Assembly: GCA_963752875.1 (NCBI GenBank)
Contig: CAVWAH010000011.1
Span: forward strand, 121,761-185,760
DNA: 64,000 nucleotides
Source: an uncultured Gammaproteobacteria bacterium
GTDB taxonomy: Bacteria > Pseudomonadota > Gammaproteobacteria > Steroidobacterales > Woeseiaceae
Reading direction: 5' to 3'
The notes under the pieces are model-generated. The model worked only from the letters and a program-made list of their open reading frames with translations, was not told where the DNA came from and searched no databases. Shown here one piece after another: positions 1 to 19,569 of this stretch. The translations under genes were made by a program, and so were the position numbers. Each line of letters starts with the position of its first letter. The first letter of the stretch is position 1.

Positions 1-1982
1 TAGAACCCGTCTTCCACGTGGCAGCCTTCGCAGTTGTTCAGGTGTCCAGGATAGACAAAGTCGAACGTGTGCGCTGTGCCACCAGAAGGGAAGCGGAAGC
101 CACAGGCCTCATACGGTTCCTTCGTGAAGTCGGCTGCGTGCAGGGCATGAATCATGACCTTCATATCGATAGTGTTGTCGTCAGCGGTACCGAGATCAGT
201 AATGCAAGGTTCGCCACGTCGATTGATGTCCGTGGCGTTCGGCGCGTGGCACGTTACGCAGACTTCAATGCTGTCCGTGCGGTTATTGCCATGCATCGAC
301 AGTTGCTGATGACAGTCTTGGCACTTTTCGATCGCTACAGCATTGCGACGAGGTGTCGCCGTGCCGGCGCCGATCTTCGCGTAGGCGACGATGTTGGTCA
401 CAGCGATTCTCTCAATCGAACCACCAATATCGACGGCTGGATGTCCGTCCATCGTGACAGCAAGCGAATCACCGGCATTGGACGGAACCTGGACAGGCGA
501 GGTCACGCGGAACACACCGCCACCAACCGGTTGCGGATTGCCGCCGCTGCACGGTATGGCGCTTATTGAGATGCCAAGTCCGGGGTTAGTGCCAGTACCG
601 TTGTTGTGATAATCCGCCGTATCCCATGCGATTCCTACTGCAAGTCTTGCAGGACCACAATTGGTCCATTCAGGTGCGGTCAGGAGATCCCAAGGAACGC
701 CCGTGACCGGGTTGTTAACGCGGTAGTCGATAACCGGGTTGTCACCTACGTCGGTGTCTGTGATCGAAACGATTTCGAACTCAAACGCTCTTGCCGCGAT
801 CACTTCAGGAATCTCGTGCACAACCTCGACGGCGTATTGTCCGTTGAACGCCGAGGCATTCTCGCCATGGCAAACGACGCAGTCCGTGTCATCGAAGAAA
901 GTGAAGCCGCCGGGGTGCAGTGTTGCCGGATCGTTCTCGGAACCATCCCAGTCGATCCAGTCATGGCAGGCGCCGCAGGAGTCGCGATTCTGAACCGTGC
1001 GCCAGTTGCTGGCTTGCGGCAAGGAGGCGTCGGATTCCTGGTGGCAGGTCAAGCAGTTTCGAACATCCTGCGGGAATATGACGTTCGAGTAGTCATGCGT
1101 GGTGTTGTTATGCCCGACAATGAAGTAACCCTCGTCGAGGTTTATGCCGTAGTGGATCTTGTGGATCATTCGTTTCATGTCTACGGTGCCGCCCCAGGCC
1201 TCGTTGACCGTGTCGCCGTCAATGGAGTACGGGTTGTGGCAGGTCACGCAGTATTCGATATCGAAACGTGCATCCCCATGGAACTCGAGATTGTCGTGGC
1301 AGGCATTACAGGTCGCGTTGTTCGCGATGAGACGTGTATCGATCGGTGCTCCGCCTGCCGGGACAAAGTCGTACGGCGCGTTATTGGCAGGAATCGCAAC
1401 ACCAAGCACGTATACCGTCCGAATCTCGATACCCAGGCGATGTGTCTTGGTGCTGTCAAAGGCCGGACCGGCAGGGTAGGCCGTCAGGTCCTGCGCGAAC
1501 GTGTAGGTGTAGCTGCCGTCGCCGTTGTCCGTGAACGTTCCGGCGGCGCCGGACTCGGTGCTGGCCTGAGCATCAACAATGCCGGCACTGTCGCGAGTGA
1601 TGTAGGACTGCCATTCGCTGGATCCGCCATCCTGACCATTCGTCAACTGCGCCAGCGTGAAGCTGATCGTATTGGCGGGGAGGTCCCTGAGGCCGAAACC
1701 AAGGCCATCAGTCAGGACCATCGTTACAACAGGGGCGCCGCCGCCGGCCGGAACAGCAACGTTCTGGATCTCGACATTGATCTTCTCAGCTGACGTAACC
1801 GGAATCGCAGGACCTGTTGAGGTCCCCGGAGGTCCCGATGGGCCTGGTGTGCCGGGAGTTCCGTTTGAACCCGCAGGACCGGCAGGTCCGGCAGGCCCGG
1901 TTGAGCTATCGCATGCAAAGAGCAGGGCGCTGGCGAGCAGCAGTCCGGCCAATCGTGTATTGCGGCTGAATGATCGTCTCAT
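1..1982 (-). CDS. OmcA/MtrC-family multiheme (decaheme-type) c-type cytochrome lipoprotein; 3' end lies beyond window start
   Basis: Absent from the supplied ORF track because it has no stop in the window. Hand translation of the minus strand from ATG at 1982 gives MRRSFSRNTRLAGLLLASALLFAC/DSS (signal plus lipobox), then 9 G-X-Y triplets and a beta-rich segment. Heme motifs follow as CNACH, CVTCH, CLTCH, CGACH, CVVCH, a second non-heme segment, then CQDCH, CVTCH, CEGCH. Codon phase was checked at 1298 and 20, both in frame with 1982, and no stops were met. The five-heme / spacer domain / five-heme layout is that of OmcA/MtrC. Confidence 0.8.
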   Translation of the reverse strand, partial: MRRSFSRNTRLAGLLLASALLFACDSSTGPAGPAGPAGSNGTPGTPGPSGPPGTSTGPAIPVTSAEKINVEIQNVAVPAGGGAPVVTMVLTDGLGFGLRDLPANTISFTLAQLTNGQDGGSSEWQSYITRDSAGIVDAQASTESGAAGTFTDNGDGSYTYTFAQDLTAYPAGPAFDSTKTHRLGIEIRTVYVLGVAIPANNAPYDFVPAGGAPIDTRLIANNATCNACHDNLEFHGDARFDIEYCVTCHNPYSIDGDTVNEAWGGTVDMKRMIHKIHYGINLDEGYFIVGHNNTTHDYSNVIFPQDVRNCLTCHQESDASLPQASNWRTVQNRDSCGACHDWIDWDGSENDPATLHPGGFTFFDDTDCVVCHGENASAFNGQYAVEVVHEIPEVIAARAFEFEIVSITDTDVGDNPVIDYRVNNPVTGVPWDLLTAPEWTNCGPARLAVGIAWDTADYHNNGTGTNPGLGISISAIPCSGGNPQPVGGGVFRVTSPVQVPSNAGDSLAVTMDGHPAVDIGGSIERIAVTNIVAYAKIGAGTATPRRNAVAIEKCQDCHQQLSMHGNNRTDSIEVCVTCHAPNATDINRRGEPCITDLGTADDNTIDMKVMIHALHAADFTKEPYEACGFRFPSGGTAHTFDFVYPGHLNNCEGCHVEDGF

Positions 1983-2237
1983 GGTCATTCCCCTTAATGT
2001 TATTAGTGCCTGAACTAATGGAGTTGAATGGTGTGGTTCGAAACAGTTTTGCCTGAAACTTTTGTTTCCCGTTCATTGCGCATTCAGGAACGGTGGTTCT
2101 TAATGAACTTGTATGATGATTAGACCCAATCTTGAATCGCGAAATGTACCTATGGATTATCGGAATGTCGCGTGCAGACTTATATTACGATGTATGTACA
2201 ATAATTGCGGGTCCGACCGGGCCAATAGGAGAATGCA

Positions 2238-2846
2238 GTGAAACGCCAATTTATCTTTGTTTTTTCAGTACTTATGCTGGGTCTGCCCGGTATTGCCAGC
2301 GCTGACGTCAAGGCGATGATGCAAGATTGCAACGGCTGCCACGGCGACAACGGGGTCAGCCAATCGAGCGACGTTCCGACGATCGCTGGTCTGGCCGAGT
2401 TTGTCCACATCGATGCGCTCTTTATTTACCAGGATGAGGCACGTCCCTGCGCTGAATCGAAATATCGGCAAGGCGACACCAGTCGCGCAGCAACAACGAT
2501 GTGTGCGGTTGCCGCCGAGCTTGGCGAGGATGATATCGAAGCGCTCGCAGCGGCTTACGCCGCGCTGCCCTATGTCAAAGCCACTCAGGACTTTGATGCC
2601 GCTCTGGCCGCTACTGGCAAGGGCCTGCACGACGACCAATGCGATCGCTGCCATTCCGAAGCCGGCACGCTTGCTGACGACGAAGCCGGGATGCTGGGTG
2701 GCCAGCAGATGGGTTATCTGCGGAACATGTTCGCCCAATACATGGACGGCTCCCGTGAACAGCCGAAGAAAATGAAAGAGAAAATGGACGCGTTGTCCGC
2801 AGACGACGTAGAAGCACTGGTTCACTACTACGGTAGTGTGCAATGA
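2238..2846 (+). CDS. periplasmic diheme class-I cytochrome c (c4-like)
   Basis: GTG start 5 nt after AGGAGA. Signal peptide MKRQFIFVFSVLMLGLPGIASA. Two CXXCH motifs (CNGCH, CDRCH), one in each of two similar halves. Confidence 0.8.
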   Translation: MKRQFIFVFSVLMLGLPGIASADVKAMMQDCNGCHGDNGVSQSSDVPTIAGLAEFVHIDALFIYQDEARPCAESKYRQGDTSRAATTMCAVAAELGEDDIEALAAAYAALPYVKATQDFDAALAATGKGLHDDQCDRCHSEAGTLADDEAGMLGGQQMGYLRNMFAQYMDGSREQPKKMKEKMDALSADDVEALVHYYGSVQ

Positions 2847-3217
2847 GTCAGCCTGATGCCGCCGGTAGTGATACCGGCGGCATGTTTGCCGCGATAGATG
2901 CGAAAGATGGCGCGGCATTCGTTTCCTACCTGACCGAAGATTCCGTATTCCGTTTCGGCTCTGCACTTCCCGTGCAGGGCCGTGATGCTATTCAGGCTGC
3001 CGTTGATGGCTTCTTCGGGACGATCCTGGGCTCTGCGCATGAAATCGCCAATACGTTTCAGTGCGACGATACGGTTATCTGTGAAGGTGAGGTGACCTAT
3101 CACCGGCACGACGACTCAAAGGTCACATTGCCATTCACGGATGTCCTCGAGTACAGCGGTGATCTGATCTCCCACTACAAGATCTACATCGACATCGGTC
3201 CGTTGTACGCCGAGTAG
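2843..3217 (+). CDS. SnoaL/NTF2-like fold protein (function unknown)
   Basis: 124 aa. ATGA overlap with the upstream cytochrome gene. Size and pattern are typical of SnoaL-like/NTF2 family domains. No signal peptide is visible. Confidence 0.55.
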   Translation: MSQPDAAGSDTGGMFAAIDAKDGAAFVSYLTEDSVFRFGSALPVQGRDAIQAAVDGFFGTILGSAHEIANTFQCDDTVICEGEVTYHRHDDSKVTLPFTDVLEYSGDLISHYKIYIDIGPLYAE

Positions 3218-3324: not shown

Positions 3325-6126
3325 ATGACACAGCCCACACGGCTTACTCGTATTTTATTGGCAGCTGCGGCGATCCTGTGGTTCGCGGGAAGCCCGGCTC
3401 TGGCCCAGGAAGATGAAAGGTGCCTGAAGTGTCACGACGATCCTGAGCTGACCAGCTACCGTGGAGACACGGAAATATCGGCCTATGTTACGGCTGCGAT
3501 GATCGCGGGATCTGTGCACTCCGGCGAGGCGTGCGTGGACTGCCACGGTGATCTCGCTGGAAGCAAACGCCGCAGGCACGCCGAAGACCTGGAGCCCGTC
3601 GAATGTGGCGAGTGCCACAGACGCCAGGCCAGAGCGCATGGCAACAGCCTGCACGGTGCCGCAGCTGCCGAGGGCGATCCAATGGCCCCGACCTGTGGCG
3701 ACTGCCACGGCAAGCACGACGTCCTGTCGTCCTCCAGCGCCAACGCGACAACCGCGGTGATGAATATCCCGGTGCTTTGCGGAAACTGCCACCGCGAGGG
3801 CGCTCCGGTATCGCGAACTCATGAGATTTCGCAGGAGAACATCCTCGAGAATTACTCGATGAGTATTCACGGTGAAGGTCTGTTCTCGCAGGGCCTCACC
3901 GTCACGGCTGTTTGCACCTCTTGCCACACCGCACATGACATCCTGCCGCATACCGATCCGAAATCGAGTATCCACGCCGACAATGTCGGCGAGACATGTA
4001 CCGCATGTCACGGCCTGATCGAAAACGTGCACCGCAAGGTCATCGAGGGCCATTTGTGGGCGGAAGATCCGGGCAAGATCCCTGCCTGTGTCGACTGCCA
4101 CGCCCCGCACAAGATTCGTAACGTATTTTACCCGGACGGCCTGGCCGACAAGGATTGCCTGAGCTGCCACAGTCAGCCTGACCTGTCGATGGAACGTGGT
4201 GGCAACACCATCAGCCTGTACGTCGATGAAGAAGCCTACGAAAACTCGAAGCATACAGACACTTCTTGTGCCCAATGCCACACGGACGTGACCGTCGCCG
4301 AAGAACGTGCGTGTTCAACAATACAGACGCAGGTAGATTGCAGTATTTGCCATGCTGAGCAGGTGTTGGAGTACGGCGGCAGTACACACGGAACCCTACA
4401 TGCCGAAGAAGATCCGGATGCGCCTTCCTGTCAGGATTGTCACGCCAAGCACGCGACACTTGGCCAGGATTCGCCGGCGTCGCCGACCTATGCGCTCAAT
4501 GTTCCGACGCTCTGTGGAGACTGTCATCGCGTGGGCGAGCAGGCCGCCGGCCGGATAGAGGCGAAGGTCGGTGACATAGTCGGCAGCTATGAGGATAGCG
4601 TGCACGGCCGCGGATTGATTGAGAGCGGTCTTGTTGTAACAGCGACTTGCGCCGATTGCCACGGGGCACATAACGAACTTCCGCCGGACAGCCCGAACTC
4701 CAACATTAACCCGAATAATATCGCGGGTACCTGTGGTCAATGCCATCATGGCATTGAGGAGCAGTTCCGGGAGAGCGTTCACTGGACGGACGATCCGGTC
4801 GCTGATGAAAACAAACCCACCTGCGAAGACTGTCATTCCTCGCACACCATCATGCGTACCGAACAGATTGGATTCCGCGACCTGATGATGGAACAGTGTG
4901 GCCGTTGTCATGAGGACGAGACGGAGACATTTTTCGATACATTCCACGGCAAGGTTTCGCGCCTGGGTGGTGAGGGCGTCGCCAAGTGTTACGACTGCCA
5001 TGGAACTCACGGCATCGTTGCGCCAACGGATCCCAATTCGACGCTCAGTAGGGATAATGTCGTCGAGACCTGTGGGCAGTGCCACGAGGGCTCTCACCGG
5101 CAATTCGCGGGCTACCTGACACACGCGACGCATCACGATCGCGAAAAATACCCTTGGTTGTTCTGGTCGTTCTGGGGCATGACTGCGTTGCTGGTCGGTA
5201 CACTGTCATTTGCCTTGCTGCACTCGTTCGCCTGGGTGATCCGACTCGTGCTGAATCGTGAAGAGTGGCGAGCACACAAGGCGTTGAGCCAGAGCAGAGA
5301 CCAGAAATTCTATCGCCGTTTCAGCCGACTCCAACGCACCATGCATATCATAATGATGCTCAGCTTCTTCACGCTGGCGTTGACAGGCATGGCGTTGAAA
5401 TTCTCATACATGCCCTGGGCACAGGCGGTTTCCAATTTCCTGGGCGGATTTGACAGCATGGGCTTCCAGCACCGCGTTGGAGCGTTCGGCCTGCTGATTG
5501 TTTTCATTCTGCATACCTACGACATTGTCAGCTATAAGCGAAAGACGAAGCAGACCATGTGGCAGATCATTAACGGACCGGACTCGATTATTTTCAATGG
5601 CCGTGATCTCAAGGAGTTCATCCAGTCGATCAAGTGGTTCTTTGGCATGGGCGAGCGTCCCAACTACGGCCGCTACACCTACTGGGAGAAGTTCGATTAC
5701 TTCGCGGTCGGCTGGGGTATCATCATCATCGGTACGACCGGACTCGTACTCTGGTTCCCCGAAATCTTCACACGTATTGTGCCGGGCTGGGCAGTGAATG
5801 TGGCTACGATCATTCACAGTGACGAAGCGCTGCTTGCAGTGGGTTTCATCTTCTCGATTCACTTCTTTAACACCCACTTCCGGCCCGACAAGTTCCCGAT
5901 GGATCCCGTGATATTTACTGGGCGTTTGTCTGTCGATGAGCTGAAATACGACAAGCCTGGCGAATACGAAGAGCAGGTGGAATCCGGTGAGCTGGAGAAT
6001 AACCTCGTCAGAGCGTTCCCAAGGTTCAAAGACAAGGGCGTGAGGATATTTGGCATGCTGGCGCTGACCTTCGGTCTGGTGGTGCTGGGCCTGATTGTGT
6101 ACTCGATGCTGTTCGGCTACCGTTGA
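3325..6126 (+). CDS. 19-heme c-type cytochrome fused to a C-terminal b-type cytochrome membrane domain (CbcL-like architecture)
   Basis: Signal peptide ...AGSPALAQE. 19 CXXCH motifs counted in residues ~33-590. The C-terminal ~330 aa form multiple TM helices with conserved His (RTMHIIMM, FQHRVGA, FILHTYD, TIIHSDEA, SIHFFNTHF), as in FdnI/HydC-type diheme cytochrome b. Confidence 0.85.
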   Translation: MTQPTRLTRILLAAAAILWFAGSPALAQEDERCLKCHDDPELTSYRGDTEISAYVTAAMIAGSVHSGEACVDCHGDLAGSKRRRHAEDLEPVECGECHRRQARAHGNSLHGAAAAEGDPMAPTCGDCHGKHDVLSSSSANATTAVMNIPVLCGNCHREGAPVSRTHEISQENILENYSMSIHGEGLFSQGLTVTAVCTSCHTAHDILPHTDPKSSIHADNVGETCTACHGLIENVHRKVIEGHLWAEDPGKIPACVDCHAPHKIRNVFYPDGLADKDCLSCHSQPDLSMERGGNTISLYVDEEAYENSKHTDTSCAQCHTDVTVAEERACSTIQTQVDCSICHAEQVLEYGGSTHGTLHAEEDPDAPSCQDCHAKHATLGQDSPASPTYALNVPTLCGDCHRVGEQAAGRIEAKVGDIVGSYEDSVHGRGLIESGLVVTATCADCHGAHNELPPDSPNSNINPNNIAGTCGQCHHGIEEQFRESVHWTDDPVADENKPTCEDCHSSHTIMRTEQIGFRDLMMEQCGRCHEDETETFFDTFHGKVSRLGGEGVAKCYDCHGTHGIVAPTDPNSTLSRDNVVETCGQCHEGSHRQFAGYLTHATHHDREKYPWLFWSFWGMTALLVGTLSFALLHSFAWVIRLVLNREEWRAHKALSQSRDQKFYRRFSRLQRTMHIIMMLSFFTLALTGMALKFSYMPWAQAVSNFLGGFDSMGFQHRVGAFGLLIVFILHTYDIVSYKRKTKQTMWQIINGPDSIIFNGRDLKEFIQSIKWFFGMGERPNYGRYTYWEKFDYFAVGWGIIIIGTTGLVLWFPEIFTRIVPGWAVNVATIIHSDEALLAVGFIFSIHFFNTHFRPDKFPMDPVIFTGRLSVDELKYDKPGEYEEQVESGELENNLVRAFPRFKDKGVRIFGMLALTFGLVVLGLIVYSMLFGYR

Positions 6127-6183: not shown

Positions 6184-7566
6184 GTGGCCAGGGTCTTTCA
6201 TCTTTGGCGTATTGGGGCAGGGCTTATGTTGGATTTAACCGGTCACTGGGTCGGCGCTACCGCCCTCCTGATATTTGTCCTGGCTTACCTGCTGGTCATC
6301 GTCGAGGAATTCACGCACCTCAGAAAGTCCAAGCCGGTAATCCTTGCTGCCGGCCTGATCTGGGCAATCATCGCCTATCAGTACGCTACTGCGTCCATTT
6401 CACATGCGACGGAGGAGGCCGTCCGACATTTCCTGACGGAGTTTGCCGAGCTGTTCCTCTTCCTGCTCACAGCGATGACCTACGTCAATGCGATGAGTGA
6501 GCGTCGCGTGTTCGCGGCGCTCCGGTCGTGGCTCGTAAACCATGAATTCAGCTACCGACAACTATTCTGGATTACCGGCATCCTCGCCTTTTTCCTCTCG
6601 CCCATAATTGACAACCTCACGACAGCACTGGTGATGTGTGCGGTATTGCTCGCAGTGGGAAAAGAGAGCCCGAAATTCGTCAGTATTGGTTGTGTCAATA
6701 TCGTCGTCGCGGCCAACGCAGGCGGAGCATTCAGTCCATTTGGGGACATCACGACATTGATGGTCTGGCAAAAGGGGACATTGGAATTCCAGACGTTCTT
6801 CGCACTGTTTGTTCCGTCAGTCGTCAACTACCTGGTGCCGGCAGTCGTCATGTCTTTGGCGGTGCCTAAAGCAAGCCCACAGGCGGAGACTGAGGTTGTC
6901 GAAATGCAGCGCGGTGCCAAGAGAATGATGTTTCTCTTCGGATGCACGATTGCAACGGCGGTCAGTTTTCACAACTTCCTTCACCTCCCACCATTTCTCG
7001 GCATGATGACGGGACTCGCCTATCTTCAGATCTTCGGCTACTACCTGCGAATCACACACACTGCTGAAATGGAAAATGGACCGATTCGTGGCCGACATGG
7101 AGAGATCACTGCGTTTGACAGCTTTCGAGAAATCGCGCGCGCCGAATGGGACACGCTGTTGTTCTTCTTCGGTGTGATCATGTGCGTTGGTGGCCTTGGG
7201 TTCATCGGCTACCTGGATCAATTGTCCGTTTACGCCTATTCGGAACTCGGCGCGACGGTTGCCAACATACTGGTTGGTATCGCATCCGCGATCGTGGACA
7301 ACATTCCGGTCATGGTAGCGGTACTGCAGATGTACCCCGAAATGGATGTTGCGCAATGGTTGCTGGTTACGCTAACAGCTGGCGTCGGCGGCAGCCTGCT
7401 TTCTATCGGTTCAGCCGCAGGTGTTGCCCTGATGGGTCAGGCGCGAGGTCAATACACCTTCTTTTCTCATCTGAAGTGGACGCCGGCGATTGCCGCCGGC
7501 TTCGCACTGAGTATCTGGGTGCATTTCCTGGTCAACAGCCATTACATCGGGGTGGCCCCGACGTAG
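6184..7566 (+). CDS. nhaD: Na+/H+ antiporter, NhaD/ArsB-type permease
   Basis: 460-aa polytopic membrane protein with the NhaD family pattern. The track start is GTG 6184; an in-frame ATG at 6226 (MLDLTGHW...) is an equally plausible start. Confidence 0.7.
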   Translation: MARVFHLWRIGAGLMLDLTGHWVGATALLIFVLAYLLVIVEEFTHLRKSKPVILAAGLIWAIIAYQYATASISHATEEAVRHFLTEFAELFLFLLTAMTYVNAMSERRVFAALRSWLVNHEFSYRQLFWITGILAFFLSPIIDNLTTALVMCAVLLAVGKESPKFVSIGCVNIVVAANAGGAFSPFGDITTLMVWQKGTLEFQTFFALFVPSVVNYLVPAVVMSLAVPKASPQAETEVVEMQRGAKRMMFLFGCTIATAVSFHNFLHLPPFLGMMTGLAYLQIFGYYLRITHTAEMENGPIRGRHGEITAFDSFREIARAEWDTLLFFFGVIMCVGGLGFIGYLDQLSVYAYSELGATVANILVGIASAIVDNIPVMVAVLQMYPEMDVAQWLLVTLTAGVGGSLLSIGSAAGVALMGQARGQYTFFSHLKWTPAIAAGFALSIWVHFLVNSHYIGVAPT

Positions 7567-7590: not shown

Positions 7591-9462
7591 CTAGGTGTCT
7601 TCTTCGGGAGTCTCCTGATAGACAACCTCACCGCGTTCCTCTGCCCTTGAGAAAGGCGGCTTGCCGGTAAACCAGGTCGTATCCATCGGGTAGACCGCCG
7701 GGTCGAGCATAACGGAGTAGAAATGCCAGATGAGGATTGCAAGCGTCGCCAGGATTGCCTCGAGGAAATGCAGGACGGTAGCCGCCTCAGGAACCCATCC
7801 CGGGAGCCATGTCAGTGTAAGGTTCTCGAACCACAACACTAGTCCCGTCACCGCTGTGACGAACGTGCCCCACAACGCGGCCCAGTATTCGACCTTCTCA
7901 ACGTAGCCGACGCGCACCGGGGCCGGCGGATCGGAACGCAGCCCCAGGTTGTAGCTGGTCCGGTGGACAAACTCACTGAAATCGGCGGTCTTCGGCAGGA
8001 ACGATGCCATCTGACCCCGTGCGCGCGCGCTGATGGCGAGATGGCCGAAATGAATCAGGCAGGCTCCCATGAGACCCACTGCGGCGATACGGTGGACCAG
8101 ACCGCGAAACTCGTTGTCCCCGAACTGCAGTAATACAGCCCACCAGCTTTCCGGGTACTTCAATGCAAATCCCGTGTATACGAGCACGAAGAAACTGACG
8201 GCGGCCAAGGCGTGCACAAGCCGGAATGGTCGAGACATGCGTTCCTTGATCGAGCTTTGCTCGGGAGCCCGGCGCCGCCACAACGAATAGGTGCGCGTCT
8301 TTTTGACCAGGTCGAGCAGGTTGTGCAGCAGCATGCCGATGACGGTGACCCAAATCAGGGGAATGTAGATTTTCCTGATCCAGTAGGCGACGACGTTGGA
8401 GGTCTCGTCGGCAATCGTGTGTACAGGACCGATCGCAAACCGGGTTCCCGCTCCGGCATGGCATTGTCCGCAGGTCTCTGCCAGGTTATCTGTGTGGGTG
8501 TGTGAATCGGGGTCGGTCGACGGCAGAATGTTGTGCACGCCGTGGCAGCTTGCGCAATTGGCGACACGCTGTGAACCGCCGCGTGCGGCCAGTCCGTGGA
8601 AGCTCTCGCCATAGGACGGAACCTGGTCCACAGGCAGGCCGTATTTTTCGCTGAGCTTGAGGTCTGAGTGGCAGGGACCGCAAACCTGGATCGGGACGTT
8701 GCTGGCCGAAACGGGCGATCCTGGAGCCGCGATCGCTAAAATCCGATGCTCGCCATGACAATCTGTGCACACCGGTGATTCGTATACGCCGGCGGCCGCT
8801 GCCATCCCGTGAATGCTGCGACCGAACTGCCTGGTGATCTTACGGTGGCAATCCCCGCACGTGTCAGGCACGTTCATGCGATGAATAGAGGAGGTCGGGT
8901 CAGAGGCGGGCAACGGCGAGTGGGCCGAATGGCAGTCGCTGCAACCGGGTCCCGGATCATGATCGTGAACGGCTTGCGCGTGCACGCTGGCCGTGTAGGC
9001 CGCGATCGGGCGAATAGTCGCCACGTTTCGATCCGCCGGCGGTTCCTTACCATGACATGCGCCGCAAGTTTCACCTTGGGATAATGAAGAAACCGGGGAT
9101 GACTCATCGGTGTACGACGTCATGGTGTGGGTTTCGCCATGGCAATCCGCACAGGTCGGCAATATCGGGTCAGGGAATTTCTGCGGGCCGAGCTCGCCGT
9201 GCGCGCTAGTGGATTGCTCCTCGACTACATCATCGTGGCAGGATCCGCAGTCGACGGGATCGAGTCCGCGCCTGTGCCGGCGCTGGTCGGCACCGACATG
9301 GCAGTCGAGGCATTCCGTCGTGCCGTGGACCGTAAGCTCGAATTGCGCGAGGTCGGTTTCGTGGCAATCGAGGCAGGGATTTACCTGTTCGGTGTCGCTC
9401 GCTTGTAATGTGAGCGGCATACAGGCAAGGAGAAGGGTGAAGCTGGCGATGAACTTGTGCAC
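7591..9462 (-). CDS. 11-heme c-type cytochrome fused to a C-terminal b-type cytochrome membrane domain (CbcL-like architecture)
   Basis: Signal peptide MHKFIASFTLLLACMPLTLQA. 11 CXXCH motifs. The C-terminal TM domain carries conserved His (RLVHALAA, LVHRIAA, CLIHFGH, TVLHFLEA, LIWHFYS) and aligns by eye with the C-terminal domain of the 3325-6126 protein. Confidence 0.85.
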   Translation of the reverse strand: MHKFIASFTLLLACMPLTLQASDTEQVNPCLDCHETDLAQFELTVHGTTECLDCHVGADQRRHRRGLDPVDCGSCHDDVVEEQSTSAHGELGPQKFPDPILPTCADCHGETHTMTSYTDESSPVSSLSQGETCGACHGKEPPADRNVATIRPIAAYTASVHAQAVHDHDPGPGCSDCHSAHSPLPASDPTSSIHRMNVPDTCGDCHRKITRQFGRSIHGMAAAAGVYESPVCTDCHGEHRILAIAAPGSPVSASNVPIQVCGPCHSDLKLSEKYGLPVDQVPSYGESFHGLAARGGSQRVANCASCHGVHNILPSTDPDSHTHTDNLAETCGQCHAGAGTRFAIGPVHTIADETSNVVAYWIRKIYIPLIWVTVIGMLLHNLLDLVKKTRTYSLWRRRAPEQSSIKERMSRPFRLVHALAAVSFFVLVYTGFALKYPESWWAVLLQFGDNEFRGLVHRIAAVGLMGACLIHFGHLAISARARGQMASFLPKTADFSEFVHRTSYNLGLRSDPPAPVRVGYVEKVEYWAALWGTFVTAVTGLVLWFENLTLTWLPGWVPEAATVLHFLEAILATLAILIWHFYSVMLDPAVYPMDTTWFTGKPPFSRAEERGEVVYQETPEEDT

Positions 9463-9741
9463 TGAGATGCCCGGTGTTCCAGAATGTTCTGGCGTTAGGA
9501 ACGCTTGGCCATATTATGGGCCCCATTCGTCGATATCCCAACACCTTGAAACTGCGAGAAATACGGATTTCCGTGCTGCTCCTACGTAGTCTAATATCGC
9601 ACTCGCTACGACCAACTAAAATACTCTGAGTGTTGCTCAGTTGGGGACAATAAGAGCGTTCAAGCGAGAACTGACGGCAGACTTGCCAGGACAATAAATA
9701 TCAGGCATCCCCCGGTCATTGATCGGAACTTGAGGAACACC

Positions 9742-11148
9742 ATGATCAAGAACTTCTTTGCGTCAATTACTCATAACGCCATCAGCCTGGTTGGTACCGC
9801 AATCGCCGTGGCTACACTGGTACTTATGGCGAGCCTGTTCGGCATGGAAATTTGGGGCTTCGATGGCGGCCCATACCTGGGAATACTGACGTACCTGATT
9901 CTGCCGATGATTTTTGCCATTGGCTTGATTCTGATTCCGGTCGGCGCGGTTCTTTATCGCCGCAGGCTGCGACGCGTGCAGGGAGGAGAAGACACGCCTC
10001 TACTGCCAGTGTTCGACCTGAACATCCAATCGACACGCCGCTGGATGCTGATATTTGTCGCTGCGACGATGTTCAATATCGTCATTGTCGCGGGTGCGAC
10101 CTACAAGGGCGTACATGTCATGGAGTCCGTGGAATTTTGCGGTCTCGCCTGCCACTCGGTCATGGAGCCCGAGCACACAGCCCATGCAAGGTCGGCGCAT
10201 TCGCGGGTTGCGTGCGCCGATTGTCATATTGGCCCCGGTGCAGACTGGTTCGTTAAGTCCAAGCTGGATGGTGCGTGGCAGCTCATCTCTGTAGCCTTTG
10301 ATCTCTACCCGCGCCCGGTGCCCACGCCGCTGCATGATTTGCGCCCGGCACGGGAAACCTGCGAGCAATGCCATTGGCCGACGAAGTTTGTCGGTGACAG
10401 GCTCAAGGTGATTAATCACTTTGAAGATGACGAGGCGAGTACAGAATTAACGACGGCATTGCTGCTGAAGGTCGGGGGCTCCAGCGGAAGCAGTTCGCAC
10501 GGCATTCATTGGCATGTCGATCCGGATGTCAAGATTCGCTACCGGTCAGACGACACCCGTGAAGAAATCTACGAGGTGGAGTTTGCTCATGGCGACGATG
10601 AGGCGGTTATCTACTCAGACCGCAAGGCGCCGGAGGAAGGCGGCGTCTGGCGTTCGATGGACTGCGTCGATTGCCATAACCGGCCGTCGCATATCTATGA
10701 ATCGCCGGGACCTGCAATCGATGGGGCTATCAAGACCGGCCTGATCGATCGGTCACTGCCGTTCGTCAAACGCGAAAGCCTGCGCGTGATTAATGCCGAA
10801 TACGAATCTCACGAGGTGGCTCGAGAAGCGATCACTGCCGGGTTCACGGCTTTCTATGCCGACAACTACCCGGACATTGCAACCGAAAGTGGCGAGGAAA
10901 TTGACGCGGCGGCAAACGCGCTGGGCGACATCTTTTCGGTCAATGTCTTTCCGGGCATGAATGTCTGGTGGGATACCTATCCGAACCATATCGGACACGA
11001 ACAATCGGATGGGTGCTTCCGTTGCCACAGGCGCAGCATGCGAACAGCGGACAGGAAGCAGATCTCGGACGACTGCGACAATTGCCACGTCCTGCTTGCT
11101 GAAGAAGAGGAAAATCCAGACATCATGGCCGTGCTGAAACCAGAGTGA
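9742..11148 (+). CDS. membrane-anchored NapC/NirT-like multiheme cytochrome c (3 TM helices, 6 heme motifs; ImcH-like architecture)
   Basis: ATG 9742 follows GAGGAA (the track start is TTG 9730). Three N-terminal TM helices. Heme motifs are CGLACH (a CX3CH), CADCH, CEQCH, CVDCH, CFRCH and CDNCH. Confidence 0.75.
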   Translation: MIKNFFASITHNAISLVGTAIAVATLVLMASLFGMEIWGFDGGPYLGILTYLILPMIFAIGLILIPVGAVLYRRRLRRVQGGEDTPLLPVFDLNIQSTRRWMLIFVAATMFNIVIVAGATYKGVHVMESVEFCGLACHSVMEPEHTAHARSAHSRVACADCHIGPGADWFVKSKLDGAWQLISVAFDLYPRPVPTPLHDLRPARETCEQCHWPTKFVGDRLKVINHFEDDEASTELTTALLLKVGGSSGSSSHGIHWHVDPDVKIRYRSDDTREEIYEVEFAHGDDEAVIYSDRKAPEEGGVWRSMDCVDCHNRPSHIYESPGPAIDGAIKTGLIDRSLPFVKRESLRVINAEYESHEVAREAITAGFTAFYADNYPDIATESGEEIDAAANALGDIFSVNVFPGMNVWWDTYPNHIGHEQSDGCFRCHRRSMRTADRKQISDDCDNCHVLLAEEEENPDIMAVLKPE

Positions 11149-11897
11149 ATCAAATGCTTGCGAACCCCTCAAGGCGTCAGCTTATCAATGAGGTAGTTAG
11201 TGGTGGCACCGGACTGGTGTTGGCGCTATTTATGTGGGGGCACGTTGTGCTGGTCGGTTCGATCTTGACCGGCGAACGCGGCTTCGACTGGATGGCGACG
11301 ATGCTCGAGGACTATTTCATCGCCCAGCCAACGGTGATAGCGATTTTCTCTCTGTTCCTGGTGCATGCGGTATTTGCGGCGCGCAAGATTCCGTCGCAGC
11401 TTCAAGAACGCAAGCGTCTGGCCGAACTCGCTAAGGGACTCAGAAATTCGGGTCGGGAAAAAGTGGCAACGCGTACACCGTATTCGCCGTTCCGTCCGCA
11501 CCTCGAGTCGATGCTCTGGATCTGGCAGGTACGCACAGGCATGGTCATGCTGGTGCTGGGTAGCTTCCACCTTATTCTGCTCGCTCTCGATGTGTTCACC
11601 CCGCTGTTTGGTGACATGGCGGGCATCGAGTCGTCTACATCGATGGCACGTGTTGCCGCAGGTTTGTGGCTGCCGTACGCGATCCTGTTGCTGTGTGTCG
11701 AATTTCACGCCAGCGTCGGCTTGTATCGGCTCGCGATCAAATGGGGCGCCGATCTGTGGCTGTCGCGCAAGGTGATGCACCTGATCGAACAGATAATTTT
11801 CTGGACGATTCTGGTGATCGGTTCAATTACGTTGTTTGTACTCGCAGGCTGGATGGATCCACCGCTGGCCTTCCTGCTCGAAGGGGCCGGGTCATGA
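11145..11897 (+). CDS. frdC: fumarate reductase/succinate dehydrogenase diheme cytochrome b subunit, type B (5-TM, FrdC-like)
   Basis: 250 aa with 5 predicted TM helices and four TM histidines (MWGHVV, LVHAVF, SFHLIL, EFHASV), as in Wolinella/Geobacter-type FrdC. GTG 11145 overlaps the upstream TGA; the alternative start is ATG 11154. Confidence 0.75.
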   Translation: MNQMLANPSRRQLINEVVSGGTGLVLALFMWGHVVLVGSILTGERGFDWMATMLEDYFIAQPTVIAIFSLFLVHAVFAARKIPSQLQERKRLAELAKGLRNSGREKVATRTPYSPFRPHLESMLWIWQVRTGMVMLVLGSFHLILLALDVFTPLFGDMAGIESSTSMARVAAGLWLPYAILLLCVEFHASVGLYRLAIKWGADLWLSRKVMHLIEQIIFWTILVIGSITLFVLAGWMDPPLAFLLEGAGS

Positions 11898-13840
11898 TGC
11901 AAAAGCTCCTGACAACGGATGTACTGGTTATCGGCGGCGGGCTAGCCGGCGAACGTTGCGCGATAGAGGCGGCAGCAGCTGGCCAGGAAGCGTTGATCCT
12001 CTCACTGGTACCGCCGCGCCGCAGCCACAGTTGTGCAGCACAGGGCGGCATGCAGGCGGCGTTGGCGAATTGCGTCAAGGCAGAGGGCGATAGTCCGGAT
12101 GTCCATTTCCTCGACACGGTGCGTGGCTCCGACTGGGGTGCGGATCAGGAAGTCGCCAATATTTTCGCCGACAACGCGCCGGTCGCAGTGCGCGAACTCG
12201 CACATTTCGGTGTGCCATGGTCGCGCGTAAAGGGAGGCAAGAATCACTACTTCATCAAGGGCGAAGAGGTTGAGATAGACGAAGCGCTCGAGAACGATGG
12301 TCTGATTGGCCAGCGCGACTTCGGCGGCACTGCCAAGTGGCGAGCCTGTTACGCGGCGGCTGGTACCGGACACGCAGCGCTTTACGCAATCGACAGCGAA
12401 GTCGTGCGCCTTGGGATTACGGTACGAGACCGTACCGAAGCGGTTGCTCTGATTCACGATGGCAGTCGATGCGTGGGGGCGGTCGTCAGGGACCTTCGCA
12501 ATGGCTCACAGTTCGCTGTGATGGCCAAAGCGACCGTTATCGCTACAGGCGGATACGGTCGCATTTATGGCCAGTACACGAGTAATGCGACGATCAACGA
12601 AGGCACGGGAGCATCGATTGCTCTTGACACCGGCATCGTGCCGCTTGGCAACATGGAGGCCGTGCAATTTCACCCGACAACCCTGTCACCGAGCGGAATA
12701 CTGGTGACAGAAGGTTGCCGAGGTGACGGAGGTTATCTGCTCGACAAGAACATGAACCGATTCATGGTCGAAGCGGAACCCGAGAAACAGGAGCTGGCCA
12801 GCCGTGACGTTGTGTCGCGACACATGGTGCAATGTATGCGCGACGGCAACGGCGTCGAGTCACCGTATGGTCCGCATCTCTGGCTCGATATCCGGCATTT
12901 GGGTGAGGAACACCTGCGGACCAAGTTGCTGGAGGTTTGGGATATCTGTCGTGACTTTGTTGGACGCAACCCTGCCGAAGAACTGATACCGGTGCGACCG
13001 ACCCAACACTATTCAATGGGTGGAATACGCGTCAACAAGGATGGCCAGGCATACGGACTTGCGGGCCTGTTTGCCGTCGGCGAAGCGGCCTGCTGGGACA
13101 TGCACGGCTTCAATCGTCTTGGCGGCAACAGCCTGGCCGAAACGCTGGTTTCCGGACGCATCGTCGGTCGTCGTGTCGCGGAATATGCCACCGGGACGAC
13201 ACTGCGAGCCGACACAGGTGCCGCTTTTGATGCGCTCGAAGCTGCCGCAAATCGATCCCGGGATTGGCTGGTACGTACTGGCAATGGCCCCAGCGTCTAC
13301 GAGATTCGCGACAGAATGGGCGAGATCATGATGCACAAGGTCGGGATCTTCAGGAACGGTGACGAACTTGCCGAGGCTGTCACGGAACTCGGGCAGTTGC
13401 TGGACGACTGTGATAGTGCAGTGTTGCGCTGCAAAGACCCGGGTATGAACCCGGAGTTGTCCTTTGCGCTACGTCTCAAAGGCATGCTGCGCCTCGCGAT
13501 GACCGTCGCCAAAGGCGCGCAAGCCCGCACAGAAAGTCGCGGCGCACATTTCCGGATGGATTTCCCGCTTCGCAATGACCGTGAATGGCTCAATCGAACA
13601 CTGGTCCGTTGGGGAATCGATGATAGCGCACCCTCATTCAGTTACGAGCCCACTGGCATCATCGACCTGCCACCCGGTCATCGCGGATACGGTAGTGACG
13701 AGCGCATCGAGATGACGACATCGCTCGATGATTACAACGAAAATGTACTGGCTGAGCAGATTCGACATGGCCGCCTCGATAGTGTTGAGGAGATGGGCAG
13801 TCGATTGCGGCGCGGCGCAAGGAATGCAGAGGCAGGCTAG
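11894..13840 (+). CDS. frdA: fumarate reductase/succinate dehydrogenase flavoprotein subunit
   Basis: ATG 11894 overlaps the frdC TGA (ATGA). N-terminal DVLVIGGGLAGERCA dinucleotide fold, RSHSCAAQGG (covalent-FAD His) and QFHPT. The track ORF starting at 11666 is an upstream in-frame extension overlapping frdC. Confidence 0.9.
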   Translation: MMQKLLTTDVLVIGGGLAGERCAIEAAAAGQEALILSLVPPRRSHSCAAQGGMQAALANCVKAEGDSPDVHFLDTVRGSDWGADQEVANIFADNAPVAVRELAHFGVPWSRVKGGKNHYFIKGEEVEIDEALENDGLIGQRDFGGTAKWRACYAAAGTGHAALYAIDSEVVRLGITVRDRTEAVALIHDGSRCVGAVVRDLRNGSQFAVMAKATVIATGGYGRIYGQYTSNATINEGTGASIALDTGIVPLGNMEAVQFHPTTLSPSGILVTEGCRGDGGYLLDKNMNRFMVEAEPEKQELASRDVVSRHMVQCMRDGNGVESPYGPHLWLDIRHLGEEHLRTKLLEVWDICRDFVGRNPAEELIPVRPTQHYSMGGIRVNKDGQAYGLAGLFAVGEAACWDMHGFNRLGGNSLAETLVSGRIVGRRVAEYATGTTLRADTGAAFDALEAAANRSRDWLVRTGNGPSVYEIRDRMGEIMMHKVGIFRNGDELAEAVTELGQLLDDCDSAVLRCKDPGMNPELSFALRLKGMLRLAMTVAKGAQARTESRGAHFRMDFPLRNDREWLNRTLVRWGIDDSAPSFSYEPTGIIDLPPGHRGYGSDERIEMTTSLDDYNENVLAEQIRHGRLDSVEEMGSRLRRGARNAEAG

Positions 13841-13846
13841 GGAACT

Positions 13847-14590
13847 ATGAGCGAAACTACACGCCGACTACGGTTCGAAATCTTCCGGTATAACCCGGAG
13901 GACGAGAACAGTACGCCGCATACGGATGTCTTCGAGCTTGACGAGACGCCGTTCATGACGCTGTACATTGCACTCAACCAGATTCGTGAACGATTCGACC
14001 CGGGTTTGCAGTTTGATTTTGCATGTCGCTCGGCAATCTGCGGTTCCTGCGCGATGATGGTTAACGGGCGACCTGCGCTGGCGTGCCGGACGCTGACAAG
14101 CGACCTTACGGAAAAGATTCACCTCTATCCGCTGCCGGTCTTCAAGCTGATCGGTGATCTGTCCGTGGATACCGGGACCTGGTTCCGCGCGATGGTCGAA
14201 CGCACCGAAGCCTGGATACACGAGCGCTTGCCATTTGATCCCGATGCAACAGAAGACCGCATGAGCGACGACGTAGCCGCGGCAATTTACGAAAATGATC
14301 GTTGCATCGAGTGTGGCTGTTGTGTTGCGGCGTGTGGTGCAGCCAATATCGATTCTGAGTTCCTCGCCGGAGCCGGGTTAAATAGAATTGCCCGTTTCAT
14401 GCTCGATCCGCGCGATCAACGGACCGATGGTGACTGGTTCGAGGTTCTGGCTGGTGACGAGGGCGTCTTTGCCTGCATTGGCATGATGGCCTGTGAGGAT
14501 GTCTGTCCGAAGGAACTGCCGCTTCTCGACGTGTACGGATACCTGCGCCGAAAGTCATTCTCCGCGGGACTCTCAAGTAACAAGAAATAG
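13847..14590 (+). CDS. frdB: fumarate reductase/succinate dehydrogenase iron-sulfur subunit
   Basis: 2Fe-2S region CRSAICGSCAMMVNG...C and Cys clusters CIECGCCVAAC and CIGMMACEDVCP. Confidence 0.9.
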   Translation: MSETTRRLRFEIFRYNPEDENSTPHTDVFELDETPFMTLYIALNQIRERFDPGLQFDFACRSAICGSCAMMVNGRPALACRTLTSDLTEKIHLYPLPVFKLIGDLSVDTGTWFRAMVERTEAWIHERLPFDPDATEDRMSDDVAAAIYENDRCIECGCCVAACGAANIDSEFLAGAGLNRIARFMLDPRDQRTDGDWFEVLAGDEGVFACIGMMACEDVCPKELPLLDVYGYLRRKSFSAGLSSNKK

Positions 14591-14787: not shown

Positions 14788-15258
14788 ATGAAGCGGCACG
14801 TCCTGCACCCGTTATGGGTAGCAATCGGACTAGTGGGGCTGATATTCCTGGCCAGGAGTTTTCTGGTCCCGGACGACTTTGGCGTTCACGGCGACAGCTT
14901 CACCTACAATTATCATCGCCTCAGCAATATTCAGGAATGGCAAGATTTTCCCGTGAAGTACCGTGGGAAGGATTCCTGCACTGAATGCCACAAAGCCAAT
15001 GTCAGGAAGAACAGGCGATCTCCCCACAAACGCATCGAATGTGAGAGCTGCCATGGGCCGTCAGGTAACCATCCTGACGACGTGGAATACCTGCCGCTTA
15101 ACAAAGAACGAGCCCTCTGCCTGCGATGTCACGCATCTCTTGAGTATCCCGATGCGGCCAGATCCGACTTGCCTGCGATCCATGATCGGCGCCACAAACG
15201 CAAGCGCGAATGCGTTGAATGCCACAATCCACATGACCCAAGGGAGGATGTCGAATGA
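14788..15258 (+). CDS. membrane-anchored tetraheme cytochrome c
   Basis: GGAGAGG ribosome-binding site. N-terminal TM helix. Motifs CTECH, CESCH, CLRCH and CVECH in 156 aa. Confidence 0.8.
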   Translation: MKRHVLHPLWVAIGLVGLIFLARSFLVPDDFGVHGDSFTYNYHRLSNIQEWQDFPVKYRGKDSCTECHKANVRKNRRSPHKRIECESCHGPSGNHPDDVEYLPLNKERALCLRCHASLEYPDAARSDLPAIHDRRHKRKRECVECHNPHDPREDVE

Positions 15259-16025
15259 CTTGTTCTCGCAGGGATTTCCTGAAAGATGCCGTCGGTGGAA
15301 CGGTTGCATCCGTATTACCGCTGAGCGCATTTACATTCCTGACTACAGCCGAAGCCAAGGCGGCGATAGCTGACGCAAAAGTCAGGTGGGCGTTCCTTGT
15401 CGACACGAACAAGTGTGTCGGTTGCGGATTGTGCGTCGACGCATGTAAGAATGAAAATGAGATTCCGTATGACGCACCTGTCACCCGGACCTGGGTCGAA
15501 CGCTATGTAGTAACCAAAGACGGTCGAACGCTTGCAGATTCTCCCAAGGGTGGGAGAGACGGATTCACAACCGGCAATATTCGTGAGGAGGAGATTGATC
15601 CCGATAATGTCGCAAAGGCATTTTTCGTTCCAAAGCTCTGCAATCAATGCGACAACCCGGCCTGTGTGCAGGTGTGCCCTGTTGGCGCGACGTACCAGAC
15701 GCATGACGGGGTGGTCCTCGTGGACAGGGAATGGTGCATCGGCTGCGGCTACTGCATCATGGCTTGCCCCTATGGCGTCCGCTTCTTCCACCCGGAGCAC
15801 AGAGTCGCCGACAAATGCAATTTCTGCTACCACCGGATTACCAAGGGTCTTCAGCCTGCCTGTGTGCAGAGCTGCGCATTCGGCGCCCGCAGGTTGGCGA
15901 ACCTGAAGGACCCCGATGACCCGGTAACAAAGATCATAACGACCGAAAGAGTGGCGGTCCTCAAGGACGAGTACGGGACAAAGCCGCATGTCTTCTATCT
16001 TGGTCTCGATGCCAGCGTGAGGTGA
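15255..16025 (+). CDS. Tat-exported 4Fe-4S ferredoxin-type subunit (NrfC/PsrB/SirC-like)
   Basis: ATGA overlap with the upstream gene. Twin-arginine signal CSRRDFLK. Cys clusters CVGCGLCVDAC, CNQCDNPACVQVCP, CIGCGYCIMACP and CNFC...C. Confidence 0.85.
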   Translation: MTCSRRDFLKDAVGGTVASVLPLSAFTFLTTAEAKAAIADAKVRWAFLVDTNKCVGCGLCVDACKNENEIPYDAPVTRTWVERYVVTKDGRTLADSPKGGRDGFTTGNIREEEIDPDNVAKAFFVPKLCNQCDNPACVQVCPVGATYQTHDGVVLVDREWCIGCGYCIMACPYGVRFFHPEHRVADKCNFCYHRITKGLQPACVQSCAFGARRLANLKDPDDPVTKIITTERVAVLKDEYGTKPHVFYLGLDASVR

Positions 16026-16029
16026 TTTC

Positions 16030-19372: not shown

Positions 19373-19569
19373 GTTGCTTCTCCGTCCGCGCCTTTGCGCT
19401 TCTTGCGGCAGTTGCCTTTGCCGCTGCATAGTTCACAGCCACCCCCATTGAGGCCGCCGCAGCTGCCACTGATCGCTTTGCGTCCGTTCATGACACCAAC
19501 ACTCATGCCCGTAATCACGAGCAGGATGATGATGAAGCTAAACAACAGGGTGGTCATGATCATATTCAT
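19369..19569 (-). CDS. nqrM: (Na+)-NQR maturation protein NqrM (DUF539)
   Basis: 66 aa: one TM helix, then GSCGG...C..C...C and a basic tail. Positioned directly downstream of apbE in the nqr operon. Confidence 0.75.
   Translation of the reverse strand: MNMIMTTLLFSFIIILLVITGMSVGVMNGRKAISGSCGGLNGGGCELCSGKGNCRKKRKGADGEAT

Follow-up and report, generated by a model that had tools for sequence, protein, structure and literature searches.

The CbcL protein of Geobacter sulfurreducens unites a diheme cytochrome b domain, HydC/FdnI-like and made of six helices, with a nine-heme cytochrome c domain (bioRxiv 10.1101/2022.08.31.506072; PMC6295460). It functions as a menaquinol oxidase; quinol oxidation has been proposed to take place at the cytoplasmic face, and it has been argued that with such a topology protons are released in the cytoplasm and growth yield is lowered. 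The hemes of its c domain are all bis-His ligated, the apparent potential (Eapp) of this domain is -194 mV and electrons are passed on to soluble PpcA (PMC9129911). MtrH from Rhodoferax ferrireducens and MtoC from Dechloromonas and Gallionella, encoded in mtrAB and mtoAB clusters, are members of the same family (PMC6295460). Zhong and Shi (2018, Front Microbiol, PMC6295460) collected 138 CbcL/MtrH/MtoC homologues from 15 phyla, 416-1034 residues long and with 3-23 CX2CH motifs, mostly with six helices and conserved histidines and often encoded beside mtrAB or mtoAB; among the entries of their Table S2, at least ten have 19 hemes and a length of 913-951 residues. Here we describe a 19-heme cytochrome c/cytochrome b fusion gene from a 64,000-nucleotide stretch (hereafter the window; contig CAVWAH010000011.1, positions 121,761 to 185,760, assembly GCA_963752875.1) of an uncultured gammaproteobacterium of the family Woeseiaceae. 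We consider it probable that the encoded protein is an inner-membrane quinone/quinol:cytochrome c oxidoreductase and represents a long form of the CbcL/MtrH/MtoC type, and judging by its genomic context it has a part in extracellular electron transfer.

The gene is a single open reading frame that extends from the ATG at 3325 to the stop codon at 6126 on the forward strand and encodes 933 residues. The protein contains exactly 19 CXXCH motifs, spread over residues 33-583, and 38 of its 39 cysteines reside in these motifs, while a scan of the same protein for CX3-4CH and CXXCK motifs returned none. When its own residues were shuffled 20,000 times, 0.09 CXXCH motifs were found on average and three at most. 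Heme 19 is followed by six hydrophobic helices, located by hydropathy at about 614-639, 675-693, 711-736, 793-811, 827-845 and 908-926 and in the AlphaFold2 (AF2) model at 610-643, 668-692, 709-741, 786-810, 833-852 and 900-931. Pfam matches are Cytochrome_C7, Cytochrom_c3_2, Paired_CXXCH_1 and Ni_hydr_CYTB. The parts of the gene are as follows:

3325..6126, + strand: gene for the 19-heme cytochrome c/cytochrome b fusion, long-form CbcL/MtrH/MtoC type (open reading frame, CXXCH motifs, Pfam, full-length relatives)
3409..4155, + strand: heme module 1 (hemes 1-8; residues 29-277), the N-terminal one of two copies of an 8-heme unit (repeated spacing, match to module 2)
4156..4896, + strand: heme module 2, residues 278-524, hemes 9-16 (repeated spacing, match to module 1)
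4897..5139, + strand: membrane-proximal segment of three hemes (17-19; residues 525-605) with THATHHD at its end (motif, conservation)
5152..5253, + strand: extra transmembrane helix TM0, residues 610-643, containing His633 (hydropathy, AF2)
5314..5880, + strand: FdnI/HydC-like four-helix cytochrome b core, residues 664-852 (TIGR01583, profile, Foldseek)
6022..6117, + strand: sixth, C-terminal helix TM5, residues 900-931 (hydropathy, AF2, alignment)
3325..3408, + strand: Sec signal peptide, residues 1-28 (...SPALA/QE), with a hydrophobic stretch at 10-28 followed by ALA-Q as the predicted cleavage site
4312..4314, + strand: codon of Cys330, the sole cysteine outside CXXCH motifs (conservation; candidate ligand)

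An original prediction, made by a model from the letters of the sequence, had described precisely this combination of 19 CXXCH motifs and a transmembrane domain with conserved histidines in one 933-residue polypeptide, and had named the nine-heme, HydC/FdnI-like CbcL as the known analogue. Both statements agree with the open reading frame, the motif count, the invariant helix histidines and the literature (bioRxiv 10.1101/2022.08.31.506072; PMC6295460). It had also proposed hidden Markov model searches with Paired_CXXCH_1 and Ni_hydr_CYTB, and both models match, the latter exactly at its cut-off. A gene produced by a sequencing or assembly error that joined a multiheme cytochrome gene to a cytochrome b gene is so improbable that we set it aside, as the same continuous frame is present in independent assemblies from many phyla and the linker and TM0 are conserved in them; because full-length collinear relatives occur in many phyla, we are dealing with one gene and not with a mis-joined frame. 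The novelty that the prediction implied for the architecture did not hold up, as 19-heme forms of similar spacing were catalogued in 2018 (PMC6295460).

The protein has the features of the CbcL/MtrH/MtoC family, i.e. a signal peptide followed by 19 CXXCH motifs, six FdnI-like helices and conserved membrane histidines. Compared with the ten 19-heme entries of Table S2 (PMC6295460), 15-16 of the 18 inter-motif distances are identical and the helices occupy the same coordinates. There is no architectural difference from entries such as BAX79136.1 (Marinifilaceae SPP2, 932 residues), PLX00698.1, OIP92139.1 and MAF27600.1, but the lineage is another one and a neighborhood of mtrCAB, pdsA-like and imcH-like genes has not been described for them. 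Judged by motif spacing and helix positions, the 933-residue protein is an orthologue within an already catalogued long-form subfamily and its architecture is not new. Since fusions of multiheme cytochrome c with FdnI-like cytochrome b containing up to 23 hemes have already been published, our finding extends current knowledge and does not overturn it. Like CbcL (GSU0274), the protein combines a periplasmic multiheme cytochrome c, placed N-terminally, with a six-helix diheme cytochrome b and is without an iron-sulfur, flavin or molybdopterin partner, whereas CbcL has nine hemes in 619 residues as opposed to 19 hemes in 933 residues.

A search of 5.8 billion protein clusters yielded 120 representatives with 60-100% identity, 79 with 19 motifs, 22 with 21 motifs and the rest truncated fragments. 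A genome scan with one genome per species gave at least 596 confirmed stretches, the best 80 of which were used for locus comparisons; nearly all of these 80 match residues ~1-933. They come from metagenome-assembled genomes, of which those of Woeseiaceae, Chromatiales and other Gammaproteobacteria share 73-85% identity with the protein studied here, and those of Acidobacteriota, Gemmatimonadota, Bacteroidota, Ignavibacteria, Zixibacteria, Verrucomicrobiota, Myxococcota and others 50-64%. The best matches and the conserved gene order also make a Woeseiaceae-like gammaproteobacterium the most likely source of the window. Public names of the relatives are generic ('cytochrome b/b6 domain-containing protein', 'cytochrome c3 family protein', 'cytochrome b subunit of formate dehydrogenase'). 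An exhaustive HMMER search with the cytochrome b domain found 2391 clusters at the 50% level, 1508 of them at E<=1e-10, and the complete proteins among the top matches carry 0-22 hemes, most often 9 or 11. Some of these are nine-heme proteins spaced like CbcL, which match the domain with E values of 1e-56 to 1e-76 at 35-42% identity. A profile search with seven such CbcL-like representatives returned 120 closer metagenomic proteins, among which there was no Geobacter entry and none with the motif vector of GSU0274.

The kinship of the membrane part to FdnI became apparent from a profile built on 30 cytochrome b domains of 9- to 23-heme relatives. Searched against the PDB, it matches Escherichia coli FdnI (1KQF chain C) with an E value of 2.1e-12 over FdnI residues 3-212, and His674, His716, His831 and His846 fall on FdnI His18, His57, His155 and His169, the ligands of hemes bC and bP. 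Heme bP on the periplasmic side would thus be held by His716 and His831 and heme bC on the cytoplasmic side by His674 and His846. In the AF2 model, the domain reaches predicted local distance difference test (pLDDT) values of 70-84, and its sole significant Foldseek match in the PDB is 1kqf_C (E 2.6e-4, TM 0.71). All 109 family members taken from the related loci have these four histidines, which also occur in 86-89 of 89 representatives obtained by clustering at 50%. The prediction had declared itself in advance to depend on such ligands and on a single frame; all four FdnI ligands align and are invariant, and one continuous frame is kept across phyla. Loops rich in lysine and arginine after helices 0, 2 and 4 fit the positive-inside rule and the topology of FdnI, which puts the heme domain on the periplasmic side and lets the four-helix core begin and end in the cytoplasm; TM0 would then lead the chain from the periplasm to the cytoplasm. 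TM5 is present in the 19- to 23-heme forms and missing from an 11-heme paralogue encoded in the window.

The protein and FdnI or HydC/HyaC have in common a four-helix bundle of the same topology with the four ligand histidines on helices 1, 2 and 4. Identity with FdnI (1KQF_C) is ~17%, however, and the protein has one extra helix before the core, containing His633, and another one after it. FdnI docks onto an iron-sulfur subunit, whereas the domain studied here is fused to c-type hemes and bears a second histidine on helix 2 (His730). We consider the domain a distant homologue of FdnI and not an orthologue of FdnI or HydC. An automatic JGI name implies an FdnI orthologue of formate dehydrogenase; this assignment was rejected on account of scores below cut-off and of lacking catalytic subunits, as genes for periplasmic iron-sulfur/molybdopterin (FdnGH-like) or NiFe catalytic proteins adjoin the gene neither in the window nor in the 80 related loci. 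Membership in the NapC/NirT/CymA family was likewise rejected (PF03264 34 bits with no stretch passing, TIGR02161 18 bits, different architecture). Three further membrane histidines are conserved. His633 in TM0 (codon 5221-5223), with 109 of 109 family members and 86 of 89 representatives, is as conserved as the heme ligands, His851 is found in 79 of 89 and His730 in helix 2 (codon 5512-5514) in 62 of 89 diverse representatives. The alignment offers no FdnI counterpart for His633 or His730, and His730 aligns with His100 of cytochrome b6 in a weak match. It is conceivable that His633, His730 and His851 could form a third heme site or a quinol pocket.

The heme domain is repetitive. The distances between successive motifs read 37, 24, 30, 28, 45, 28, 30, 23, then 37, 24, 30, 28, 45, 28, 30, 25 and finally 30, 28, and module 1 (residues 30-264) is 39% identical to module 2 (275-515) over 238 residues (E 2e-52). 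The 11-heme paralogue aligns to residues 301-886 of the 19-heme protein (32% identity, E 5e-88), such that module 2 together with the triheme segment corresponds to its entire heme domain. Because the two modules are alike and the paralogue aligns in this manner, the 19 hemes derive from an 11-heme core to which an 8-heme module was added by tandem duplication. The representative P0155 (1005 residues) has 22 hemes in an exact 11+11 repeat, 23-heme genes are present at L052, L053, L062, L067 and L069, and Thermoanaerobaculia and other Acidobacteriota have forms with 21 and 23 hemes; judging by these 19-, 21-, 22- and 23-heme forms, the family grows by duplication of whole modules. The long forms are widespread, in Acidobacteriota, Gemmatimonadota, Bacteroidota, Verrucomicrobiota and others, and represent natural heme wires lengthened by module duplication. 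The THATHHD motif in the segment of hemes 17-19 is invariant, with His600 present in 89 of 89 diverse representatives. The MtrA/DmsE model TIGR03508 scores 84.3 bits (cut-off 192.2) in four separate stretches, and a search of the PDB with the sequence of the whole protein gave weak c-heme matches alone, namely 28pb_A and NrfB (2ozy), an NrfB-like Pfam family being matched as well. The modules thus bear a weak resemblance, at the level of the module, to linear wires of the NrfB and MtrA/DmsE type.

The original prediction had gone one step further and proposed that the 19-heme chain could wire the quinone pool across much of the periplasm without soluble carriers. In its full form, this would mean an extended rod that reaches MtrA without a diffusible carrier, with module duplication selected for length. 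Twenty hemes span ~185 angstrom in MtrCAB and the periplasm measures ~200-250 angstrom; such a length, the growth by whole modules (8+11 = 19, 11+11 = 22, 21- and 23-heme forms) and the likeness to linear wires are compatible with carrier-free spanning. Yet the operon also encodes a secreted PdsA-like shuttle, which is translationally linked and conserved together with the long cytochrome, the shorter 11-heme paralogue is retained next to the long form and CbcL itself makes use of soluble PpcA (PMC9129911). The AF2 model of the heme domain, calculated in the apo form, has pLDDT values below 50 over long stretches and a predicted TM score (pTM) of 0.42, and Foldseek found no significant match for it, so that the model is too poor for any statement on the shape of the domain or the length of the heme chain. 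On balance, we regard the spanning rod as doubtful; the protein most likely connects quinone pool and periplasm, while the absence of soluble carriers is left without support by the PdsA-like gene in the operon and by the CbcL-PpcA precedent.

The one cysteine outside the CXXCH motifs deserves separate mention. Cys330 is invariant and resides nine residues N-terminal of heme motif 11, at a position that is taken in the alignment by the invariant His85 in module 1 and by His63 in the 11-heme paralogue. Relatives with 19, 21 and 23 hemes have cysteine here in 133 of 143, 34 of 34 and 8 of 8 cases, respectively, while histidine is found in 37 of 56 relatives with 11 hemes and in the only one with 22. 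Cys330 is thus a hallmark of the 19/21/23-heme subfamily. As it stands where the paralogous module has a conserved histidine, it is a candidate heme ligand and suggests that one heme may be His/Cys-ligated. Apart from the motifs, module 2 contains seven invariant histidines plus Cys330 for eight hemes and module 1 nine invariant histidines, and spare histidines elsewhere could serve as ligand in place of Cys330. CbcL, by comparison, is bis-His ligated throughout. Should Cys330 ligate a heme, the wires of the long forms would contain a low-potential step of their own. We found no earlier report of the 8+11 duplication, of the exchange of histidine for Cys330 or of the conservation of His633. 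A bolder combination of these features would turn the long subfamily into a self-gated, periplasm-spanning link between the quinone pool and MtrA, with a very low-potential His/Cys330 heme in the middle of the wire as redox gate or sulfur site, with His633 (together with His730 and His851) at a third b-heme or quinol site and with a rod of 15-19 nm; we put this forward as a speculation that is unlikely to prove right as a whole.

The function that we favor, a quinone/quinol:cytochrome c oxidoreductase, would proceed as follows. Quinol would be oxidized at a site near heme bC (His674/His846) on the cytoplasmic side, as in FdnI operated in reverse, and electrons would cross the membrane from bC to bP (His716/His831). 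They would then enter heme 19, beside the THATHHD motif, and move outward along 19 mostly bis-His ligated c-type hemes. At the distal N-terminal end, the PdsA-like shuttle encoded in the operon and/or MtrA of the adjacent MtrCAB conduit could take them over and lead them to extracellular Fe(III), Mn(IV) or some other acceptor. Since protons would go to the cytoplasm, little energy would be conserved, as has been argued for CbcL. The electron chain would in principle be reversible. We infer the position of the quinone site, the electron partners and the heme occupancy, and we deduce the direction of flow from the presence of MtrC, an ImcH-like protein and fumarate reductase. The place in the pathway, between the quinol pool and the periplasm, is the one that CymA/NapC-NirT and NetBCD hold in the Mtr systems of Shewanella and of Aeromonas/Vibrio (PMC8805035), but the membrane modules of the latter are unrelated, being either a single helix with a quinone site at the periplasmic face or NrfCD, and contain no b-type hemes.

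The surroundings of the gene bear on the partners and the direction of this pathway. Related loci are numbered L001 onward, and context counts cover 80 or 74 loci, as given. The neighboring genes are:

2238..2846, + strand: first gene of the operon, secreted PdsA-like diheme cytochrome c (NF049874, Pfam Cytochrom_C and Cytochrome_CBB3)
2843..3217, + strand: SnoaL_2 (NTF2-like) protein without signal peptide (PF12680, 54.9 bits; kept in 7 loci)
1..2156, - strand: outer-surface decaheme lipoprotein of the OmcA/MtrC family, cut by the edge of the window (TIGR03507, 400.9 bits, cut-off 209)
6184..7566, + strand: NhaD Na+/H+ antiporter (NF038006, 595 bits), 57 nucleotides downstream of the 19-heme gene
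7591..9462, - strand: 11-heme paralogue, 623 residues, 11 CXXCH motifs and an FdnI-like cytochrome b domain with five helices (open reading frame, motifs, Pfam)
9730..11148, + strand: ImcH-family inner-membrane cytochrome, 472 residues, three transmembrane helices (motifs, spacing)
11145..14590, + strand: frdCAB, fumarate reductase with diheme cytochrome b subunit (PRK13553) and flavoprotein (PRK08626, 938 bits), syntenic in 6 loci

The SnoaL_2 gene overlaps the diheme cytochrome gene by four nucleotides and the 19-heme gene follows 107 nucleotides further on the same strand, just as the original prediction had it when it placed the gene in one operon with a diheme cytochrome c and an NTF2-like protein. 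The order diheme cytochrome, SnoaL_2 protein, 19-heme cytochrome is found again in 7-9 related loci. The PdsA model NF049874 yields 182 bits over residues 10-202 (cut-off 330), and the gene is kept upstream in nine loci; PdsA itself is the periplasmic diheme shuttle of the Aeromonas and Vibrio Mtr pathways (PMC8805035). CbcL cooperates with PpcA and conduits of the Pcc/Omc type, whereas here the partners would be the PdsA-like protein and MtrCAB. The mtrC gene is divergent from the operon, with 81 nucleotides between its start and the pdsA-like gene. In L002, L003, L004 and L061, mtrC is followed by a gene for a 10-heme MtrA-like protein and/or an MtrB_PioB porin (PF11854, 476 bits); MtrH and MtoC are likewise encoded in mtrAB or mtoAB clusters (PMC6295460). 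Scans for promoters and terminators gave signals at or below shuffled expectation, and an Rfam search of the window returned no match.

On the other side of the gene, nhaD is probably a passenger, since not all members of the lineage have it between the two cytochrome paralogues; L003, L005 and L006 are without nhaD and have the 11-heme gene directly next and on the same strand, while it is inverted in the window. In 41 of 74 loci, a short family member (8-13 hemes) is encoded no more than 10 kb from the long one, and in 28 the two are direct neighbors; such tandem pairs, found in many phyla, may indicate a functional pair or hetero-oligomer. The ImcH-like protein has a CX3CH motif at residue 137 and CXXCH motifs at 162, 211, 312, 429 and 449, a spacing that matches the ImcH homologues of Geothrix and Geoalkalibacter in Table S3 of PMC6295460. 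Its homologues are encoded beside the 19-heme gene in 16-25 loci, and frdCAB is situated directly downstream of it. The overall order MtrC, PdsA-like, SnoaL_2, 19-heme, (NhaD), 11-heme, ImcH-like, Frd is found in eight related loci.

This context also speaks to the direction of electron flow. Woeseiaceae carry lithotrophic potential, and electrons from Fe(II), a reduced mineral or a cathode might conversely come in through an Mtr-type conduit and reduce quinone at the cytoplasmic face, with a proton-motive redox loop like that of Fdh-N, the role that has been proposed for MtoC of iron oxidizers. The cytochrome b domain is oriented and ligated like FdnI, which natively reduces quinone with electrons from a periplasmic donor, and the family is present in Fe(III) reducers as well as in Fe(II) oxidizers with no feature in the sequence that tells the direction (Zhong and Shi, PMC6295460). 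The island, however, encodes a surface decaheme cytochrome of the OmcA/MtrC type and a fumarate reductase. Decahemes of this type are typical of reducing Mtr systems rather than of Mto clusters. The ImcH family, represented by one gene in the island, has been reported only from reducers (PMC6295460). A 2025 survey of Woeseiaceae found mtrCAB in metagenome-assembled genomes from sediments and read them as iron reduction (PMC12175321). We therefore consider reverse flow rather unlikely and adhere to quinol oxidation with electron export.

It is also possible to picture the protein outside of the Mtr pathway altogether, as a general periplasmic electron hub or capacitor or as the partner of another redox enzyme, with its proximity to mtrCAB a mere case of hitch-hiking in an island. 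MtrC is found near the 19-heme gene in only 8 of 80 loci, and Cys330 could mark a reactive His/Cys heme as in sulfur enzymes. On the other hand, the informative neighbors are of the extracellular electron transfer type (MtrCAB, 16- and 21-heme proteins with MtrC domains, a possible porin), and the set of 19-heme gene with mtrC, pdsA-like and SnoaL_2 genes is kept in eight gammaproteobacterial loci, mtrA and/or mtrB being present in four; L001-L004, L006, L009 and L061 have all of them and L005 is without the mtrC match only. Other large multiheme cytochromes surround the gene in other phyla; in Gemmatimonadota, those around the pair of long and short form have 8, 16 and 21 hemes and MtrC-like domains. 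A role outside of the Mtr pathway is thus very unlikely in our view.

Several observations nevertheless weigh against an inner-membrane quinol oxidase that feeds an outer-membrane conduit. No other cytochrome with at least four hemes is encoded within 10 kb in 35 of 74 loci, and linkage to such a conduit is therefore not universal. At least three other candidate quinone modules that might serve MtrCAB are encoded in the window: the 11-heme paralogue, the ImcH-like protein and a tetraheme/NrfC/NrfD set (14788-17283). The score for Ni_hydr_CYTB (PF01292) is 30.1 bits and exactly equals the cut-off of 30.1, and the FdnI model TIGR01583 gives 33.1 bits over residues 664-850 as compared with a cut-off of 115.85. 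A simple model of the electron path does not account for Cys330, His633 and His730. The family is assigned through motif spacing and through nine-heme proteins as proxies, and the long-form members are known from their sequences. Along with these points, TIGR02125 scored 23.7 (cut-off 121.5).

Woeseiaceae are among the commonest marine-sediment bacteria. For this family, a complete and compact electron-export island would offer a concrete and testable route of metal or electrode respiration, in which an MtrCAB system of the Shewanella type, a PdsA-like shuttle of the Aeromonas type and CbcL-like and ImcH-like cytochromes of the Geobacter type are mixed. In the literature searched, no paper links CbcL-type genes to Woeseiaceae, and Baker et al. 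(2022) make no mention of them. Zhong and Shi noted that imcH is never adjacent to mtrAB (PMC6295460); in the window, the imcH-like gene lies ~8 kb from mtrC.

Some further gene arrangements were noted in passing. The mtrC-family lipoprotein contains a collagen-like Gly-Pro-X linker, GPAGPAGPAGSNGTPGTPGPSGPPGT, immediately after the lipobox cysteine. At 12876-14339 of L020 and at equivalent positions in a total of 16 loci from Gemmatimonadota and others, a conserved 488-residue protein with signal peptide and without Pfam match is encoded immediately downstream of the 19-heme gene and ahead of that for a 16-heme cytochrome with MtrC domain. It is rich in glycine and aromatic residues, ends with a C-terminal tyrosine and so resembles an outer-membrane barrel, and it may represent a novel porin in a porin-cytochrome conduit. 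The stretch 14788-18971 (+ strand) of the window encodes a membrane-anchored tetraheme cytochrome (156 residues), a 4Fe-4S protein with Tat signal resembling NrfC/TtrB/DsrO, an NrfD-like protein and a polytopic protein of 562 residues without family match; the gene set is also present in L004, L037 and L038 and is a candidate NetBCD/Nrf-like quinone-interacting module. Finally, the - strand at 19566-21830 carries genes for an ApbE flavin transferase and for NqrF (TIGR01941, 668 bits), and the open reading frames on the same strand up to ~27386 are probably the rest of a Na+-NQR operon.

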